This document shows positions 449 to 21,191 of a stretch of DNA of 21,627 bases, in pieces. Origin of the DNA: a virus (lineage: Duplodnaviria > Heunggongvirae > Uroviricota > Caudoviricetes). Made by a program: the position numbers and the translations under genes. Under the pieces are notes generated by a model. That model did not search any database. It was not told the origin of the DNA and saw only the letters and a program-made list of their open reading frames with translations. Every line of letters starts with the position of its first letter. Position 1 is the first letter of the stretch. The stretch lies in the IMG/VR virus record IMGVR_UViG_2859788636_000004. One strand, 5' to 3'.

Positions 449-743
449 AAAGTGAATTTTGTGATGCGGTGAATGCGGCTGAGCGCACGCGGAACAGTTA
501 AAAAGCGATTAGTTCCCACGTATCGGGTGGTTATGGGTTTCCCTGTATCCGGCGTTAATTGTTAACTGGTTAACGTCACCTGGAGGCACCAGGCACCGCA
601 TCAACAAAGTTCACTTCGGTGATGAAAGGTAAGAGAAAATGTTGAATGTAGCTATTGAAAACCAGAACGGGTGGAATTATAGTGCATCTGCACCTCATAA
701 AACGGGGGCCGGGCGTGGAAACCCGAACGTTACTCGAGCGCAT

Positions 744-767
744 AGCCGCGCTGAAGCGGTTTTTTTA
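744..767 (+). terminator. Rho-independent terminator (plus strand)
   Basis: AGCCGC / GCGGT stem (about 6 bp including a G-U pair) with 6-nt loop, followed by seven T (760-766). Confidence 0.5.
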
Positions 768-935
768 TGCGTAATGCACAGCTCCATTCAAATTATGGTG
801 GGATGTGCAGGGCAGTCGCAAGACTGGCCGGGTTCTCGAGTGACCGGTATTTCCACCCCTGTACGTCTCACCACCCTTATGGTCGTGGAAAACCTCGGTG
901 GTGAGTTAATTAACTTATCACTCGAGGATGCCATC

Positions 936-5139: not shown

Positions 5140-5143
5140 CCTG
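5132..5143 (+). repeat. Orphan 12-bp fragment identical to the first 12 bp of the IS600 left end
   Basis: TGAGGTAGCCTG equals bases 1-12 of the IS600 left end as seen in the copy at 19928; it directly abuts the right end of IS600 copy A. Confidence 0.5.
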
Positions 5144-5186
5144 TGAGGTGTACTGGCAATAGCGGACACTACCATTTGTTCTTTTT

Positions 5187-6005
5187 TTAAGCAGCCATCT
5201 GATGATATTTTTCCCTGAAGGCTGCCGGGGAGATATTCCCCAGACGAGAGTGACGACGCTGACGATTGTAGAAAATCTCAATGTATTCCCGTATTACTGA
5301 GGTGGCTTCATCCCGGTTATTAAAACGATAGTGGCTCAGGCTCTCATTTTTCAGCGTTCCCCAGAAGCTTTCCATCGGAGCGTTGTCGTAACAGTTACCT
5401 TTACGCGACATTGATGTTTTCAGACCAGACTGCTCCTGTATGACCCGGTAATCGTATGCGCAGTACTGTGAACCTCGATCAGAGTGGTGGATTAGCCCGG
5501 CAGGTGGGCGCTGGCTCCTGAGCGCCATAAACAGGGCTTTACCTGTCAGCTCTTTTGTCATGCGCTCTCCCATGGCGTAGCCGACAATTTCACACGTATA
5601 AACATCTTTGATGCCAGCGAGGTACAACCATCCCTCCTGTGTGGCAACATACGTCAGGTCCGCCACCCAGACCTGATTTGGTGCTGTAGGAGCGAACGTC
5701 TGGTTCAGCAGATTTGGCGCAACTGGCAGATTGTGGTTCGGGTTCGTAGTCGCTCTGAACTTGCGTTTCTGCTTACAGCGTAGCCTCAGCTCCTTACGAA
5801 GACGTGCCAGTCGGTCACGACCAACGATGATGCCATTCTCTGCCAGCTCCGTCTGGAGCCGCCGGGTTCCATATGTTTCGCGAGTGCGGATATGTGCCAC
5901 CTTAATCTCCAGTTTTAGCCGCTCATCACTTTGTTTTCTGTCTGAGGGTTCATGCTGTACCCAGTTGTAATAACCGCTCCTGGATACACCAAATACCTGA
6001 CACAT
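5187..6005 (-). CDS. IS600 OrfB transposase (DDE)
   Basis: 272-aa ORF, IS3-family integrase-core sequence (...IHHSDRGSQYCAYDY...SRKGNCYDNAPMESFWGTLK...). Confidence 0.9.
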   Translation of the reverse strand: MCQVFGVSRSGYYNWVQHEPSDRKQSDERLKLEIKVAHIRTRETYGTRRLQTELAENGIIVGRDRLARLRKELRLRCKQKRKFRATTNPNHNLPVAPNLLNQTFAPTAPNQVWVADLTYVATQEGWLYLAGIKDVYTCEIVGYAMGERMTKELTGKALFMALRSQRPPAGLIHHSDRGSQYCAYDYRVIQEQSGLKTSMSRKGNCYDNAPMESFWGTLKNESLSHYRFNNRDEATSVIREYIEIFYNRQRRHSRLGNISPAAFREKYHQMAA

Positions 6006-6040
6006 CGCTTCAATGGGAAATTGTTGTCGCCATTGTTCGA

Positions 6041-6343
6041 TTAACGCGTATTTTTCAGCGACTCCTGTGCAAAATACGCTGTTGCTTTTTTTAATATATC
6101 TCGCTCAAGGCGAGCTTCATTTAACGCCTTACGCAGTTGCAGAATTTCAGATTCCAGTTCAGCCACCGTGCGGGAACCAGGAGTACCGAGCCCTTTTCTG
6201 GCGGCGGTAACCCATTGTCCTAAAGTGCCTTCAGGAAGAGATAATCGGGAAGCGCCTTCACTGATCGAAAGTTGATTTTCAAGAACCGTTCTGACAGCTT
6301 CGGCTTTGAACTCTTTAGAGTAACGTTGGGTTTTTCTGCTCAT
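6041..6343 (-). CDS. IS600 OrfA (HTH transposase subunit)
   Basis: 100-aa [37 protein letters not shown]... with leucine-zipper-like C-terminus; A7G slippery run near its 3' end. Confidence 0.9.
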
Positions 6344-6407
6344 TATTAGCTCCTTCTGATGCCATTCTATTTCAGGAAGGAGTGTCCGTTAAACTCAGGC
6401 TACCTCA

Positions 6408-6658: not shown

Positions 6659-6730
6659 TGAAGTGGCACACTGAATTTGGCCACCTGAACAGAGGTGATA
6701 TGCTCACCTCAGAACAACACAGGTGCTCCA

Positions 6731-7899
<1,169 letters not shown>

Positions 7900-8094: not shown

Positions 8095-8169
<75 letters not shown>

Positions 8170-8172
8170 ATA

Positions 8173-8248
<76 letters not shown>

Positions 8249-8250
8249 GC

Positions 8251-8327
8251 TGGCCCACCACCGAGGACTCGAACCTCGCACCGTCAACTTAGAAGGTTGA
8301 TGCTCTATCCGGATGAGCTAGTGGTGG
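8251..8327 (-). tRNA. tRNA-Arg (anticodon UCU), atypical C1:G72 acceptor pair
   Basis: Reverse complement CCACCACTAGCTCATCCGGATAGAGCATCAACCTTCTAAGTTGACGGTGCGAGGTTCGAGTCCTCGGTGGTGGGCCA; all four stems pair; anticodon loop CTTCTAA. Confidence 0.7.
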
Positions 8328-8328
8328 T

Positions 8329-8405
8329 TGGTGGCCCTTGCTGGACTTGAACCAGCGACCTGGCGATTATGAGTCGCTCGCTCTGACCAACTGAGCTAAA
8401 GGGCC
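8329..8405 (-). tRNA. tRNA with anticodon CAU, tRNA-Ile2 (lysidine)-like; Met cannot be excluded
   Basis: Reverse complement GGCCCTTTAGCTCAGTTGGTCAGAGCGAGCGACTCATAATCGCCAGGTCGCTGGTTCAAGTCCAGCAAGGGCCACCA; anticodon stem-loop GCGACTCATAATCGC and T-arm resemble E. coli ileX/ileY. Confidence 0.75.
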
Positions 8406-8414
8406 GGAGGCAGA

Positions 8415-8443
8415 ATAATAACCATATGTCATCACATCTGCAA
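8415..8443 (-). promoter_or_regulatory. Candidate sigma70 promoter for the tRNA array
   Basis: On the minus strand, TTGCAG (-35, plus coords 8438-8443), 17-nt spacer, TATTAT (-10, plus coords 8415-8420), about 9 nt upstream of the first tRNA 5' end at 8405. Confidence 0.4.
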
Positions 8444-8493: not shown

Positions 8494-8517
8494 AAAAAAA
8501 CCCGCATAAAGCGGGTT
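8494..8517 (-). terminator. Rho-independent terminator downstream of the ORF6N-domain gene
   Basis: On the minus strand, AACCCGC-TTTAT-GCGGGTT hairpin followed by a T-run of seven. Confidence 0.6.
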
Positions 8518-9166
8518 CTTTCAAGTGTCCATGTCTGCTATTCGCCTCGCGATACAGCTTTGCGAAGCTTACCGGAATTGAAGCAGTTTATGTGCAAAAA
8601 TGCAAGAACTTTTTTAAAGCTGCATCAACCTTTCCACCAGTTTATCTCTGCGAACAACAAACCAACCATTGGCTCTCGCCAGTTCCAGCCATGACTCAAG
8701 GGAAATAACAATATCATCATCCCGTAACTGAATTGTGGAAACAGTGACACCGCCTCTCTGATAACAGAGAACTCGCGTGTCGTAACTTTTCTGGCATGAA
8801 ACTGGCGTTGACGGATCCCTTTGACTGAAATAGCAGTCTTCCAGTTTTTCGAACACATCCCACGCCTGATCGGTTTCGAGCATTTTGCCGTGGCGTGCTG
8901 CGCCTCGTTCTGTCCAGAGGATGAGGGAGCGGGCTTTGGGTGAAACTGGATTTTGTGAGTAGTTTAAAGCGACCCGCAATTCTTTAAGGTCATTACCAAC
9001 AACTTTGAAAAAGTGTTTCCCTTCAACGAAGCGTACTTTGTTCTCATGATGATTCTGGCGAATACGCACCGGCTCAGTGCCGTAAAGCTGCGCCAAAAGT
9101 TCGGTGGTAATAACAGGAATCTGTGAGGTGTACTGGCAATAGCGGACACTACCATTTGTTCTTTTT

Positions 9167-9985
9167 TTAAGCAGCCATCTGATGATATTTTTCCCTGAAG
9201 GCTGCCGGGGAGATATTCCCCAGACGAGAGTGACGACGCTGACGATTGTAGAAAATCTCAATGTATTCCCGTATTACTGAGATGGCTTCATCCCGGTTAT
9301 TAAAACGATAGTGGCTCAGGCTCTCATTTTTCAGCGTTCCCCAGAAGCTTTCCATCGGAGCGTTGTCGTAACAGTTACCTTTACGCGACATTGATGTTTT
9401 CAGACCAGACTGCTCCTGTATGACCCGGTAATCGTATGCGCAGTACTGTGAACCTCGATCAGAGTGGTGGATTAGCCCGGCAGGTGGGCGCTGGCTCCTG
9501 AGCGCCATAAACAGGGCTTTACCTGTCAGCTCTTTTGTCATGCGCTCTCCCATGGCGTAGCCGACAATTTCACACGTATAAACATCTTTGATGCCAGCGA
9601 GGTACAACCATCCCTCCTGTGTGGCAACATACGTCAGGTCCGCCACCCAGACCTGATTTGGTGCTGTAGGAGCGAACGTCTGGTTCAGCAGATTTGGCGC
9701 AACTGGCAGATTGTGGTTCGGGTTCGTAGTCGCTCTGAACTTGCGTTTCTGCTTACAGCGTAGCCTTAGCTCCTTACGAAGACGTGCCAGTCGGTCACGA
9801 CCAACGATGATGCCATTCTCTGCCAGCTCCGTCTGGAGCCGCCGGGTTCCATATGTTTCGCGAGTGCGGATATGTGCCACCTTAATCTCCAGTTTTAGCC
9901 GCTCATCACTTTGTTTTCTGTCTGAGGGTTCATGCTGTACCCAGTTGTAATAACCGCTCCTGGATACACCAAATACCTGACACAT
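9167..9985 (-). CDS. IS600 OrfB transposase
   Basis: 272 aa; one amino-acid difference from the copy A protein. Confidence 0.9.
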   Translation of the reverse strand: MCQVFGVSRSGYYNWVQHEPSDRKQSDERLKLEIKVAHIRTRETYGTRRLQTELAENGIIVGRDRLARLRKELRLRCKQKRKFRATTNPNHNLPVAPNLLNQTFAPTAPNQVWVADLTYVATQEGWLYLAGIKDVYTCEIVGYAMGERMTKELTGKALFMALRSQRPPAGLIHHSDRGSQYCAYDYRVIQEQSGLKTSMSRKGNCYDNAPMESFWGTLKNESLSHYRFNNRDEAISVIREYIEIFYNRQRRHSRLGNISPAAFREKYHQMAA

Positions 9986-10020
9986 CGCTTCAATGGGAAA
10001 TTGTTGTCGCCATTGTTCGA

Positions 10021-10323
10021 TTAACGCGTATTTTTCAGCGACTCCTGTGCAAAATACGCTGTTGCTTTTTTTAATATATCTCGCTCAAGGCGAGCTTCAT
10101 TTAACGCCTTACGCAGTTGCAGAATTTCAGATTCCAGTTCAGCCACCGTGCGGGAACCAGGAGTACCGAGCCCTTTTCTGGCGGCGGTAACCCATTGTCC
10201 TAAAGTGCCTTCAGGAAGAGATAATCGGGAAGCGCCTTCACTGATCGAAAGTTGATTTTCAAGAACCGTTCTGACAGCTTCGGCTTTGAACTCTTTAGAG
10301 TAACGTTGGGTTTTTCTGCTCAT
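10021..10323 (-). CDS. IS600 OrfA
   Basis: 100 aa, identical to the copy A OrfA. Confidence 0.9.
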   Translation of the reverse strand: MSRKTQRYSKEFKAEAVRTVLENQLSISEGASRLSLPEGTLGQWVTAARKGLGTPGSRTVAELESEILQLRKALNEARLERDILKKATAYFAQESLKNTR

Positions 10324-10600
10324 TATTAGCTCCTTCTGATGCCATTCTATTTCAGGAAGGAGTGTCCGTTAAACTCAGGCTACCTCACTGGTTATGGGTG
10401 ATCGGGGAGAGAGTTTCAACAGAGATTTGAGTGGTCATAACGATAACTCCGTACATTTGGAAATTATCGCCACCGACGACGCCAATCGAACTGGTGGCGA
10501 ACTGTGCAGGGTTGGCGTAACCGGGTACGGAAACCGGCGAGCCTTTCGGCTCCCCCACACAGCCCGCCATAAATCGCGAATGTGACTGTGCAAACGATAT

Positions 10601-10623
10601 GAAAAAAGACGCGGGCGCGTCTC
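10601..10623 (-). terminator. tR'-like intrinsic terminator just downstream of the late promoter
   Basis: On the minus strand, AGACGC-GCCC-GCGTCT hairpin followed by TTTTTT; lies about 55-75 nt downstream of the predicted start site. Confidence 0.55.
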
Positions 10624-10684
10624 ATATCGCTCCGTAAACATCCGGGACGCCAATCCCGACGCCAGATTTTGCTGGCGCGTGAGG

Positions 10685-10714
10685 AATATAGCCCCGGATA
10701 ACAGATTGAGTCAA
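10685..10714 (-). promoter_or_regulatory. PR'-like late promoter (candidate Q-utilisation region)
   Basis: On the minus strand, TTGACT (-35, overlapping the Q stop codon), 18-nt spacer, TATATT (-10). The promoter plus a short terminated leader right after a Q-like gene is the classical lambdoid arrangement. Confidence 0.5.
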
Positions 10715-11265
10715 CAAACGGTTTTTAGATCCCCGGAAGAGAATGCATCACGCATCGGTAGATAGAGCATATATTCAGCAAGATTTAGCCATACATCTAC
10801 CCGACTGCAGCACGTCCGGAAACACCACTCAGGGTGTGCGTCATTCAGCAATTCAGCCATTTTACGCTTAGTCATCCCCCGCCCTTCATACCGTTGCCGG
10901 AGGACACTAATCAATCCAGGATGCTCTGCCAGCACCTCACTTATGACTCTATCAATACATAACGCCTCTGCATCAGTACAATGCGCCAGCCAGGTCTTTT
11001 GCTTGCCATTGATCATCTCTCGCAAAAACGCTTCCAGCTCAGGTTTCTCTATTCCCGCTTTTTTCATCCTGCGCAGGGCTTCATTGACGGCTGTTTTCGT
11101 CAATTTTTTGGATGCCAGCAACTGGTTAAACATATTTCCCGTCTTACCGCCGCCAATATACGACCAGCGCCCCCACATGCGCAGTTTTCCCTGAATCCAG
11201 ACACTTTCCAGCGTGGTGAGACGAAGGTGTTCCCCGCTTTTGCCTGTATTTGTTGGGTAAATCAT
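10711..11265 (-). CDS. Putative late antiterminator Q-like protein (184 aa)
   Basis: Start ATG at 11263-11265 with SD GGAAGG and an ATGA overlap with the upstream gene; last gene before the PR'/tR' pair; follows YbcN-like and YbcO-like nin genes as in lambdoid prophages. Family assigned by position and a W-G-x-W motif recollection, not by confirmed homology. Confidence 0.55.
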   Translation of the reverse strand: MIYPTNTGKSGEHLRLTTLESVWIQGKLRMWGRWSYIGGGKTGNMFNQLLASKKLTKTAVNEALRRMKKAGIEKPELEAFLREMINGKQKTWLAHCTDAEALCIDRVISEVLAEHPGLISVLRQRYEGRGMTKRKMAELLNDAHPEWCFRTCCSRVDVWLNLAEYMLYLPMRDAFSSGDLKTVC

Positions 11266-11552
11266 AAATAACCTTCCTTTCTCCAGATTTCTTGTGTGCG
11301 AAAAACACCTTCTGCATGCATCAGGCGTAATTCTTCTTTGGTGTAATCGCTGGTTTTTACCCGCCCGTCGATTAAATCGTGGCATGAGCTACAGGCAATC
11401 GCTGCCTGCATATCGTGTGGTTTTGTCGCTGTTCCGCACGTCCCCGCCAGCCTGTAATGCGCCAGCACAGAAGTTTCGGGATTGTGATTGCAGTAGCCAG
11501 GAATTCTGACGGTGCACATCTGCCCCCGCGCCGCTTTACGTAAATCCACCAT
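11262..11552 (-). CDS. YbcO-like protein (DUF1364, putative nuclease) of the nin region
   Basis: MVDLRKAARGQMCTVRIPGYCNHNPETSVLAHYRLAGTCGTATKPHDMQAAIACSSCHDLIDGR... resembles E. coli DLP12 YbcO, with conserved Cys/His pattern. Confidence 0.7.
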   Translation of the reverse strand: MVDLRKAARGQMCTVRIPGYCNHNPETSVLAHYRLAGTCGTATKPHDMQAAIACSSCHDLIDGRVKTSDYTKEELRLMHAEGVFRTQEIWRKEGYL

Positions 11553-13487: not shown

Positions 13488-13643
13488 TTACTCCTCAGGT
13501 TCGTAAGCTGTGAAGACAGCGACCTCCGTCTGGCCGGTTCGGATTCGTACCTCGCAGAGGTCTTTCCTCGTTACCAGTGCCGTCACTATGACGGTTAAAC
13601 AGATGACGATCAGGGCGATTAACATCGCCTTTTGCTGCTTCAT
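13488..13643 (-). CDS. hokD: Hok/Gef-family type I toxin (51 aa), closest recalled paralog HokD (RelF)
   Basis: MKQQKAMLIALIVICLTVIVTALVTRKDLCEVRIRTGQTEVAVFTAYEPEE; SD AAGGAGA 7 nt upstream of the ATG. Family assignment is secure; the paralog name is from memory. Confidence 0.85.
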   Translation of the reverse strand: MKQQKAMLIALIVICLTVIVTALVTRKDLCEVRIRTGQTEVAVFTAYEPEE

Positions 13644-13700
13644 AGCCTGCTTCTCCTTGCCTTTCGGCACGTAAGAGGCTAACCTACATTTGTGAGACAT
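13488..13700 (-). CDS. mok-like overlapping reading frame (N-terminally extended Hok frame)
   Basis: In-frame upstream extension MSHKCRLASYVPKGKEKQA- has the same pattern as MokC (MLNTCRVPLTDRKVKEKRA-). Confidence 0.55.
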   Translation of the reverse strand: MSHKCRLASYVPKGKEKQAMKQQKAMLIALIVICLTVIVTALVTRKDLCEVRIRTGQTEVAVFTAYEPEE

Positions 13701-13981
13701 AGATTGGGCCTCAGATTAATGTTAAGCGTCTTGCAGGACGCGTAATGTTAACTGGGGCTTTTCTCTGTCTGCCTTACAGTGGCATGCCCGAGGCAGACAG
13801 CCTCAAGCACCCGCAGCAATCTTACCGATACCGATAAGAAAACGCTATTTTTTATTGCCAGCACCTTCTATCCAGGCTAATTTATCTGCGTCAGAACGGC
13901 GCAATGCGCTCGCCTGAGATACGTTTACTTGCCATGGTAACAACAGGTAACGGCAATTGCTGTTTCTGTTTTGTTTCCTTC

Positions 13982-19464: not shown

Positions 19465-19991
19465 GGGCAAATCCAGCATCATGTTCGAACACCACTCCAA
19501 CATCTGTTTGAACACCTGTTAAATTTCTCTCTTGTTTTGTTTGAACATCTGCTTCCTTTCTGCTTCTTCTGGCCTGAACAGATGCTTTTCCTGCGGCTGA
19601 TTTTTTGGTTAATTTTTCTCTGACAGATGCCAGATCTTCCTCAATCCGAAGATGCATCCATTCGTCGCCGTTATCACAAAAAAACTCCCGCAAGGATGGT
19701 TCAACATCAACCCATCGCTCGTTAGTCAGACGGGCAATTTTTGCCAACCTGTTTTTGGGTATTGGCTTTCCTGTTTGCCAGTAATTGAACATCAGCAACA
19801 AATACGCGCCGTGCTCCTCTGCTGACAAATGCATGGTGTCAGCCAGGTAATCAGCTATGTACAGTTGCATGTATGGTAATGCGGCCATAATTGCCCCGTA
19901 TGATGCTACCCGGTTGCTTAGAATAAGTGAGGTAGCCTGAGTTTAACGGACACTCCTTCCTGAAATAGAATGGCATCAGAAGGAGCTAATA

Positions 19992-20294
19992 ATGAGCAGA
20001 AAAACCCAACGTTACTCTAAAGAGTTCAAAGCCGAAGCTGTCAGAACGGTTCTTGAAAATCAACTTTCGATCAGTGAAGGCGCTTCCCGATTATCCCTTC
20101 CTGAAGGCACTTTAGGACAATGGGTTACCGCCGCCAGAAAAGGGCTCGGTACTCCTGGTTCCCGCACGGTGGCTGAACTGGAATCTGAAATTCTGCAACT
20201 GCGTAAGGCGTTAAATGAAGCTCGCCTTGAGCGAGATATATTAAAAAAAGCAACAGTGTATTTTGCACAGGAGTCGCTGAAAAATACGCGTTAA
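19992..20294 (+). CDS. IS600 OrfA
   Basis: 100 aa; one substitution (A to V) relative to copies A and B. Confidence 0.9.
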   Translation: MSRKTQRYSKEFKAEAVRTVLENQLSISEGASRLSLPEGTLGQWVTAARKGLGTPGSRTVAELESEILQLRKALNEARLERDILKKATVYFAQESLKNTR

Positions 20295-20329
20295 TCGAAC
20301 AATGGCGACAACAATTTCCCATTGAAGCG

Positions 20330-21148
20330 ATGTGTCAGGTATTTGGTGTATCCAGGAGCGGTTATTACAACTGGGTACAGCATGAACCCTCAGACAGAAA
20401 ACAAAGTGATGAGCGGCTAACACTGGAGATTAAGGTGGCACATATCCGCACTCGCGAAACATATGGAACCCGGCGGCTCCAGACGGAGCTGGCAGAGAAT
20501 GGCATCATCGTTGGTCGTGACCGACTGGCACGTCTTCGTAAGGAGCTGAGGCTACGCTGTAAGCAGAAACGCAAGTTCAGAGCGACTACGAACCCGAACC
20601 ACAATCTGCCAGTTGCGCCAAATCTGCTGAACCAGACGTTCGCTCCTACAGCACCAAATCAGGTCTGGGTGGCGGACCTGACGTATGTTGCCACACAGGA
20701 GGGATGGTTGTACCTCGCTGGCATCAAAGATGTTTATACGTGTGAAATTGTCGGCTACGCCATGGGAGAGCGCATGACAAAAGAGCTGACAGGTAAAGCC
20801 CTGTTTATGGCGCTCAGGAGCCAGCGCCCACCTGCCGGGCTAATCCACCACTCTGATCGAGGTTCACAGTACTGCGCATACGATTACCGGGTCATACAGG
20901 AGCAGTCTGGTCTGAAAACATCAATGTCGCGTAAAGGTAACTGTTACGACAACGCTCCGATGGAAAGCTTCTGGGGAACGCTGAAAAATGAGAGCCTGAG
21001 CCACTATCGTTTTAATAACCGGGATGAAGCCATCTCAGTAATACGGGAATACATTGAGATTTTCTACAATCGTCAGCGTCGTCACTCTCGTCTGGGGAAT
21101 ATCTCCCCGGCAGCCTTCAGGGAAAAATATCATCAGATGGCTGCTTAA
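20330..21148 (+). CDS. IS600 OrfB transposase
   Basis: 272 aa; a few substitutions relative to copies A and B. Confidence 0.9.
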   Translation: MCQVFGVSRSGYYNWVQHEPSDRKQSDERLTLEIKVAHIRTRETYGTRRLQTELAENGIIVGRDRLARLRKELRLRCKQKRKFRATTNPNHNLPVAPNLLNQTFAPTAPNQVWVADLTYVATQEGWLYLAGIKDVYTCEIVGYAMGERMTKELTGKALFMALRSQRPPAGLIHHSDRGSQYCAYDYRVIQEQSGLKTSMSRKGNCYDNAPMESFWGTLKNESLSHYRFNNRDEAISVIREYIEIFYNRQRRHSRLGNISPAAFREKYHQMAA

Positions 21149-21191
21149 AAAAAGAACAAATGGTAGTGTCCGCTATTGCCAGTACACCTCA

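Follow-up and report, generated by a model that had tools for sequence, protein, structure and literature searches.

Why should a tRNA that reads arginine codons begin with the base pair that, in Escherichia coli, characterises tRNAPro? The question is raised by a tRNA-Arg(UCU) gene in a 21,627-nucleotide (nt) stretch of DNA from a virus of the Caudoviricetes (IMG/VR record IMGVR_UViG_2859788636_000004; hereafter the window, meaning the whole stretch that was analysed), the acceptor stem of which opens with C1:G72. A sequence-only reading of this DNA had taken the pair as a peculiarity of the gene, with possible consequences for processing or for aminoacylation identity. The results presented below show that C1:G72 is an inherited trait of a lineage of lambdoid phage tRNAs, to which argN of the Shiga toxin (Stx) phages also belongs, and very probably not an identity switch. 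The gene most probably encodes an ordinary elongator tRNA-Arg(UCU) of this argN-type lineage, in which the pair has become frozen. It was located as follows:

8251-8327, minus strand: tRNA-Arg(UCU), 77 nt, with C1:G72, G73 and an encoded CCA (ARAGORN, anticodon tct; Rfam RF00005).

ARAGORN thus returned exactly the coordinates of the earlier call, the C1:G72 pair, the G73 and the encoded CCA were confirmed, and the strand, which that call had left unstated, was supplied. Read as RNA (reverse complement), the 5' part of the gene is CCACCAC-UA-GCUC-AUCCGGAUA-GAGC-A-UCAAC-CUUCUAA-GUUGA and the 3' part CGGUG-CGAGG-UUCGAGU-CCUCG-GUGGUGG-G-CCA. The stems are of 7, 4, 5 and 5 bp, all seven acceptor pairs are Watson-Crick (the first being C1:G72), and U8, A14, G18G19, U33 and a UUCGAGU T-loop are present, with U15/G48 at positions 15 and 48. 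The covariance-model comparison that had been proposed gave a match to RF00005 at 8254-8327(-), with 56.4 bits (Infernal; gathering score 29, E=6e-10), covering the full model (positions 1-71) without a single non-canonical pair being flagged. The minimum-free-energy fold (RNAfold) retained the acceptor, D and T stems. A better fold with a G1:C72 pair, which the sequence-only reading had named as the outcome that would overturn it, was looked for and ruled out: ARAGORN, Infernal and RNAfold all give the same acceptor stem, and a shifted register is impossible because the base 5' of C1, which directly follows the CCA of the upstream tRNA, is an A and cannot pair with G73. A tRNAHis-like acceptor stem of 8 bp, formed through -1:73 pairing, was also rejected. 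Such a pair is possible in 78 of the 97 family copies described below, but also in 118 of 179 unrelated tRNAs from the same loci; since these allow it too, and since the window copy (A/G) cannot form it, the pairing carries no signal.

The family was collected with patterns that were blind to both the acceptor stem and the anticodon, using the D arm and T loop only in a scan of IMG/VR, and the D arm and T arm in a scan of GTDB with one genome per species. It comprises 97 copies in 22 distinct sequences. The 1:72 pair is C:G in 96 of these copies and U·G in the remaining one, and G1 occurs in none. The anticodon is UCG in 44 copies, UUU in 30, UCU in 22 and GCG in one. Wherever a locus reaches far enough upstream, the family gene directly follows an Ile2-like CAU tRNA, with one exception, which follows a tRNA-Thr(CGU). 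In the GTDB scan the family was confined to E. coli, Shigella flexneri and one proteobacterial metagenome-assembled genome. The window tRNA is identical to family members at 62-71 of 77 positions, as against 46-61 for other Arg tRNAs, and ileZ-argN of the Stx phages is ~88% identical to the left half of the window's tRNA cluster (CAU tRNA plus Arg tRNA); comparison with the Arg tRNAs of Stx and lambdoid phages, which had been recommended, was in this respect informative, argN having C1:G72 as well. The window gene is a member of the argN-type lambdoid tRNA lineage but, because its anticodon is UCU and not UCG, it is not an isoacceptor of argN. Prophages PhiR47_1 and PPompW have the same scaffold in the same slot with the anticodon UUU, annotated as tRNA-Lys. 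One phage tRNA scaffold, then, carries three anticodons (UCG, UCU and UUU) in one genomic slot.

An alignment of 23 distinct sequences had 98.1% of its stem cells paired, compared with 29-55% when partners were slid. Two-sided (compensatory) changes were found at 3:70, 4:69, 7:66, 27:43 and 30:40, all of them transitions (G:C to A:U, C:G to U:A). The compensatory pair count was reached by 9 of 500 shuffles, and the covariation score or the changed-cell count by 0 of 500. Compensatory changes at five stem pairs indicate that the gene is under purifying selection as a tRNA and is not a decayed copy, in agreement with the earlier judgement from its four stems and conserved bases. Conservation of 1:72 in the family is, however, no higher than that of 2:71, 5:68 and 6:67, so that the data show selection for pairing and not for the C:G orientation as such. 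We attribute the constancy of the orientation to the way in which the lineage changes: turning C:G into G:C needs two transversions by way of a mismatch, and the lineage drifts by transitions.

How unusual is the pair outside this family? In a survey of bacterial tRNAs, G1-C72 accounted for ~81% and C1-G72 for ~5% (PMC8860583), so the description of G1:C72 as near-universal was somewhat overstated. The E. coli genes that start with C are those for tRNAPro, in which C1 is paired, and for the initiators, in which it is mismatched (PMC8860583); paired C1 is thus found only in tRNAPro genes, and the claim that C1:G72 is characteristic of tRNAPro in E. coli was correct. We sampled tRNA-Arg(UCU) genes with an acceptor-blind pattern made up of the D arm and anticodon loop only. 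C1:G72 was present in 15 of 111 distinct viral genes (13.5%; IMG/VR) and in 15 of 113 distinct metagenomic genes (13.3%; JGI), frequencies that do not differ (Fisher p=1). Of 247 distinct genes for the remaining non-Pro tRNAs, taken from the contigs that supplied the viral genes, 3 had the pair, and the excess in Arg(UCU) was significant (Fisher p=4e-6). All five of the metagenome contigs with a C1:G72 tRNA-Arg(UCU) that were checked also hold ordinary cellular genes (for an AMP-binding enzyme, a periplasmic binding protein, major facilitator superfamily transporters, class I fumarase, glutamate racemase and MipA), which argues that some bacteria use a tRNA of this kind as their chromosomal copy. 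The equal viral and metagenomic frequencies and these chromosomal contexts rule out C1:G72 as a phage-specific adaptation.

Across the acceptor-blind sample (loci L136-L373), tRNA-Arg(UCU) genes have G:C at 1:72 in 53-63% of cases, G·U in ~25%, C:G in ~13% and A:U in 0-7%, and most of the C1 genes begin CU (U2:A71) and have G73. Such a loose 1:72 position agrees with an arginyl-tRNA synthetase (ArgRS) that does not read it. The C1:G72 of the window gene stands out only when E. coli's own tRNAs are the yardstick; a pair that is fixed in 96 of 97 copies of its lineage, and found in ~13% of tRNA-Arg(UCU) genes, is not the gene-specific oddity that it had seemed. No donor lineage for the scaffold could be named, C1-type and G1-type Arg tRNAs being equally distant from the window gene. 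The tRNA-Arg(UCU) genes of Klebsiella and Salmonella phages have similar stems (GCGCCAU, ACACCAU) with G1:C72 or A1:U72, and overall are no closer than host argU (58-61/77). Literature in the searchable library yielded nothing relevant on genes named argN, ileZ or argO, nor on phage tRNAs with C1:G72.

The suggestion that the flipped pair alters identity was weighed against the known determinants. Those of bacterial tRNA-Arg are A20, C35, U/G36 and A/G73, a set that does not include 1:72 (PMC9976931). The window tRNA has A20, C35, U36 and G73; A20 is invariant across the family, and is placed by aligning the D loop, AUCCGGAUA, with that of argU, AGUUGGAUA. The determinants read by the prolyl-tRNA synthetase (ProRS) of E. 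coli are G72, A73, G15:C48, G35 and G36 (PMC9976931), and G72 is a strong one (PMC8860583; PMC9976931). This last point, and the occurrence of the scaffold with both Arg and Lys anticodons, which shows that its body is not specific to a single amino acid, could be taken to favour a tRNA that is mischarged (for example with proline, via G72), or else an uncharged, recoding or regulatory RNA. But G72 is all that the window tRNA has of the ProRS set, the other positions being G73, C35, U36 and U15/G48. Nor does it resemble an initiator, since C1:G72 is a Watson-Crick pair and not the C1xA72 mismatch, and the anticodon stem (UCAAC/GUUGA) is without three consecutive G:C pairs at its lower end. With the full Arg set present, the ProRS set lacking except for G72 and the initiator features absent, a change of amino-acid identity is very unlikely; the existence of bacteria in which a C1:G72 tRNA-Arg(UCU) is the chromosomal copy also speaks against one, and we regard a mischarged or uncharged product as extremely improbable. 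The complete determinant set predicts a substrate of ArgRS. Position 35 weighs heavily for ArgRS and lysyl-tRNA synthetase alike, and the Arg and Lys anticodon variants need no mischarging because both identities are driven by the anticodon.

The Arg gene is the second of four tRNA genes that form a compact module. The other features of the module and of the region upstream in the direction of transcription are:

8329-8405, minus strand: Ile2-like tRNA (CAU, ileZ/ileX type), first gene (ARAGORN, Met/Ile2-like; Rfam, 70.5 bits).
8173-8248, minus strand: tRNA-Thr(UGU), third gene (ARAGORN; Rfam, 69.8 bits).
8095-8169, minus strand: tRNA-Gly(UCC), fourth gene (ARAGORN; Rfam, 64.9 bits).
8415-8443, minus strand: putative sigma-70-like promoter, TTGCAG-N17-TATTAT, ending 9 nt before the first tRNA (consensus scan).
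8494-8522, minus strand: hairpin with U-run, AACCCGC-UUUAU-GCGGGUU-UUUUU, intrinsic-terminator-like (sequence and folding).
8614-9120, minus strand: remnant of an ORF6N-domain gene, its 5' end cut by the insertion of an IS3-family insertion sequence (IS) (Pfam PF10543, E=5.6e-18).
9121-10409, minus strand: IS3-family element with orfA (100 aa) and orfB (272 aa), between the tRNA module and the Q-like gene (Pfam HTH_Tnp_1, rve).
10711-11385, minus strand: DUF1133/antiterminator-Q-like gene (PF06576, E=5e-108; PF06530 Phage_antitermQ, E=6e-6).

The order is Ile2-CAU, Arg-UCU, Thr-UGU and Gly-UCC, with spacers of 1, 2 and 3 nt (that between the Arg and Thr genes being GC), and CCA is encoded in all four. 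The CAU tRNA is annotated as tRNA-Ile in RefSeq copies, and ileZ of an Stx2a phage is nearly identical to it. The Thr and Gly tRNAs are presumably near-copies of host thrU and glyT: the Thr/Gly part of a cluster query matched 5425 of 5426 E. coli genomes, and its Salmonella matches fell in two pieces, as Thr-Tyr-Gly. From their sequences, the two have the look of a fragment captured from the host thrU-tyrU-glyT operon, minus tyrU. The promoter-like element, which the consensus scan listed in the register TTTGCA/18/TATTAT, recurs as TTGCA[GA]-N17-TATTAT, at a distance of 8-9 nt from the first tRNA, in ~55 distinct sequences that lie upstream of the clusters in related loci. It is common to clusters of the UCU, UUU and UCG types, the other flanking sequence of which is unrelated. 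Its conservation suggests that the tRNA module has a dedicated promoter of its own, possibly expressed in lysogens. Further upstream, the hairpin at 8494-8522 was detected by folding, a simple terminator scan not having listed it (-22.3 kcal/mol, z=-5.1, with 0 of 200 shuffles equally stable). Similar hairpins precede the tRNA cluster in relatives, and this one is probably a tR'-type terminator of the late-operon leader.

In an intact relative, PGAP annotation places tRNA-Ile, -Arg, -Thr and -Gly with an 'antiterminator Q family protein' on one side and a class II holin on the other. From the hairpin through tRNA-Gly, the modules of the window and of the intact prophage share 98.5% identity; the window's tRNA cluster is 100% identical in E. 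coli CFSAN029787 and nine other complete genomes, and in FDAARGOS_944 an intact ORF6N gene precedes the same cluster. Of 5,426 complete E. coli genomes, 16 carry the exact 77-nt Arg variant, at 1-5 copies each, and the E. coli and Shigella flexneri genomes of the GTDB scan have it several times over; the 50,697 deposited phage records contain no copy of it, the best match there being 85.7%. In its RefSeq copies the gene is already annotated as tRNA-Arg, and the name argN has long been used in Stx-phage records.

The prophage around it is nonetheless defective. Copies of one IS3-family element at 5141-6407, 9121-10409 and 19906-21191, two direct and one inverted, bracket the tRNA module. A further IS3-family element lies at 6695-7899, and other repeats were found at 1477-1776/18144-18443 and 1-300/12689-12988. 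Downstream of the module, where lysis genes normally lie, there are a Gam fragment, which like the ORF6N gene is truncated, and IS3-family elements; no holin, lysozyme or terminase gene was found in this part of the window, unlike in the intact relative. The richness in IS elements and the truncated ORF6N and Gam genes are typical of Shigella or enteroinvasive E. coli genomes, and the DNA probably derives from an IS-rich genome of this sort; complete E. coli genomes each match 45% of the window at most. RNA features at 690-878 (+), 10490-10691 (-) and 13638-13812 (-) include two copies of a pair made up of the isrK small RNA and the C4 antisense RNA, one with a c4 a1/b1 target. The copy on the minus strand comes right after the Q-like gene and ahead of the ORF6N gene, a layout that resembles a P1 immI-like (c4/ant) module within lambdoid prophages. 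The sok antitoxin RNA of a hok/sok locus is present as well.

What might such a module do? The codons read by its four anticodons are AUA, AGA, ACA and GGA, all of which end in A and are used rarely or infrequently by E. coli. Genes on either side of the module in the intact relative have AGA at ~9 per 1000 codons, AGG at 4-4.7, AUA at 7-8, ACA at 10-17 and GGA at 15-20. The corresponding values for E. coli K-12 are ~2 for AGA, ~1.2 for AGG, ~4.3 for AUA, ~7 for ACA and ~8 for GGA, so that AGA/AGG are ~4x more frequent in the phage genes than in the host. For the Thr(UGU) tRNA that lies downstream of Q in Shigella phage SfI, a codon argument of the same sort has been put forward (PMC3636060). 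Because the codons read by the module are enriched in the phage genes, and because of the SfI precedent, codon supplementation is the role for which the sequences give the best support.

A model for the Arg gene can be put together along these lines. The module would be transcribed from its own promoter-like element, by Q-dependent read-through, or by both. RNase P would cut each tRNA at its 5' side, including the one that starts with C1, in the same way as it cuts tRNAPro, and the short 3' trailers would be trimmed. ArgRS would then charge the tRNA via A20, C35, U36 and G73, and the product would decode AGA, as well as AGG by wobble. In the window, the module would simply persist within an IS-riddled defective prophage that is without the downstream late genes. 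Three observations sit less comfortably with an ordinary elongator in which C1:G72 is merely inherited. In E. coli pheV, a G1 to C1 change was not tolerated (PMC8860583), so the orientation of 1:72 is not neutral for every tRNA. The Rfam score of the Arg tRNA, 56.4 bits, is 8-14 bits under those of its three neighbours in the module. Finally, the window is without the late genes that the tRNA would serve, and an IS element separates the module from the Q-like gene; for these reasons a benefit to the present host is at most putative.

Other members of the family, and other tRNAs in the same position, have features of separate interest. The UUU (Lys) copies of the scaffold (L003:1657-1733 (-), L004:378-454 (-), L125, L129 and ~25 other loci) keep C1:G72. 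In 29 of 30 of them position 33 is C, whereas U33 is near-universal, and the 3' side of the anticodon stem is G39-U40-U41, where the motif targeted by AriB of the PARIS system is U39-C40-A41. The UUU gene is unannotated in two deposited phage records. The Thr tRNA of the window's module retains the UAAUC|A motif that AriB cleaves. At L033:1469-1550 (-), ~650 nt downstream of a Lys-type cluster, there is an 82-nt tRNA-like sequence with the family acceptor stem (CCGUCAC/GUGACGG-U-CCA) and T arm and a longer, aberrant anticodon region, which ARAGORN calls Val(aac); it may be a duplicate that has decayed, or else something different. Among other lambdoid phages, tRNAs for Asn(GUU), Thr(UGU) and Arg(UCU) lie downstream of Q in Klebsiella phages (L133:355-674, L135:518-674) and in SfI (PMC3636060). 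The targets reported for AriB are precisely Lys(UUU), Thr(UGU) and Asn(GUU). By analogy, the Q-proximal tRNA slot of temperate phages may hold counter-defence cargo.

If C1 were kept for a reason, one candidate is 3' processing, with RNase E cutting right after CCA as it does in tRNAPro. When C1 of proK or proL is changed to G1, RNase E cleaves 1-4 nt further downstream, and maturation then depends on RNase T and RNase PH, with the tRNAs exposed to polyadenylation (Mohanty et al. 2022, PMC8860583). The trailer of Stx-type argN is AU-rich (UUAUC..., in a 13-nt spacer), like an RNase E site, and the fixation of C1 in 96 of 97 family copies fits such a constraint. One-step 3' maturation, free of exonuclease trimming and polyadenylation, would be useful for a polycistron in the burst of lytic growth. 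However, the trailer in the window is only GC, so that the RNase P cut at tRNA-Thr already leaves 2 nt, and the neighbours with G1 are packed just as tightly (2-3 nt), from which it follows that C1 is not needed for packing. Moreover, 1:72 stands out in conservation from none of 2:71, 5:68 and 6:67, and the effect of C1 on RNase E has been demonstrated only for tRNAPro. We therefore consider it unlikely that C1 is a processing determinant here. C1:G72 might alternatively hide the tRNA from toxins that read the acceptor stem, leaving the phage with an AGA decoder when host tRNAs are disabled. Flipping G1-C72 to C1-G72 impaired modification of a tRNAGly minihelix by the toxSAS toxin FaRel2, and the authors propose that acceptor-stem reading and the escape of phage tRNAs have co-evolved (bioRxiv 10.1101/2024.07.05.602228); the activity of AtaT depends on bases 1 and 72 (PMC7595197), and phage tRNAs rescue infection from tRNA-targeting defences (PMC12409363). 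That the sister UUU scaffold and host tRNALys differ at the place where AriB cleaves can be read in the same sense. Against this, no known toxin acts on tRNA-Arg(UCU) by way of 1:72, the pair is as frequent in metagenomes as in viruses and occurs beside housekeeping genes, and the Thr and Gly tRNAs of the module are unmodified host-type copies, all of which makes toxin evasion quite improbable.

The state of the prophage raises a different doubt, namely that the gene is a passenger relic, still intact because the time for decay has been too short. The IS3-family copies, the truncated ORF6N and Gam genes and the loss of the late genes are what would be expected of a relic. But the near-identity of the module to that of an intact prophage extends to its promoter-like element, the same 77 nt recur in 16 complete E. 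coli genomes, at 1-5 copies in each, and extra decoders of AGA, AUA, ACA and GGA can help horizontally acquired genes generally; a mere relic strikes us as decidedly improbable. A more speculative proposal, drawn by analogy, joins several of these strands: lambdoid phages that infect E. coli and Shigella may keep one tRNA chassis of their own (C1:G72, U15/G48), its C1:G72 serving one-step RNase E maturation of the tRNAPro kind or invisibility to effectors that recognise the acceptor end, and swap the anticodon between Arg-UCG, Arg-UCU and Lys-UUU (this last with C33 and an altered AriB site) as an arms race proceeds. Were this so, the window gene would be the Arg-UCU state of a counter-defence cassette, and more than a rare-codon supplement; we think it unlikely. 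An ordinary elongator with an inherited C1:G72 thus remains our preferred reading.

On that reading, in which C1:G72 is an inherited and tolerated variant, the gene has little weight as a stand-alone oddity. It does call for caution, since the equation of C1:G72 with tRNAPro is valid for E. coli's genes but not for tRNA-Arg(UCU) at large, in which the pair occurs in about 1 in 7 genes. It also documents a case in which one phage tRNA scaffold appears with three anticodons in the same genomic slot, and offers a natural substrate for asking whether C1 alone can redirect RNase E 3' processing outside tRNAPro. The by-products of the family survey, namely the three-anticodon scaffold and its UUU version with C33 and an altered AriB site, are more interesting than the window gene itself.

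How does the gene compare with better-known tRNAs? E. coli tRNAPro (proK, proL, proM) includes the sole host elongators with C1:G72, and has no sequence relationship to the window tRNA, which is without A73, G35, G36 and G15:C48 and has the Arg-specific A20. The C1:G72 tRNA-Arg(UCU) genes of uncultured bacteria and phages share with it G73 (26 of 30), an encoded CCA and the type of D arm, which in the chromosomal example L341 (GCUC-AUCCGGAUA-GAGC) is identical. They differ in that most have U2:A71 (CUG...), and at ~56-63/77 they are no more similar to the window tRNA than are G1:C72 Arg tRNAs. The tRNALys(UUU) of phage T5, which resists AriB of PARIS, is not homologous and is relevant to the sister UUU scaffold and not to the window gene; to our knowledge, AriB has not been reported to target tRNA-Arg. 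The sister scaffold is itself a phage tRNALys(UUU), and departs from the host sequence in the 3' anticodon stem, at the AriB cleavage site.

The two closest points of reference are the host and Stx-phage Arg tRNAs. K-12 argU and the window tRNA agree at 58 of 77 positions, including an identical anticodon loop (CUUCUAA), the D stem, A14, G18G19, A20, U20a, A21, G73 and CCA, and the 3' half of the D loop is equal; argU differs in having G1:C72 and G15:C48 where the window tRNA has C1:G72 and U15/G48, and the stems are otherwise different. In argN of the Stx (933W-type) phages, which lies in ileZ-argN-argO between Q and stx, the scaffold is homologous, 62-65 of 77 positions being identical, and C1:G72, U15 with G48, the UUCGAGU T-loop and the encoded CCA are common to both. 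Their placement is also alike: each is second after an Ile2-like CAU tRNA, downstream of the late antiterminator and behind the same promoter-like element. The anticodon and discriminator base, in contrast, are UCG and U73 in argN and UCU and G73 in the window tRNA, and the spacer after the CAU tRNA is 7-9 nt in the former and 1 nt in the latter. Finally, argN is followed by argO (UCU, G1:C72) and stx, whereas the window Arg tRNA is followed by host-type Thr and Gly tRNAs.

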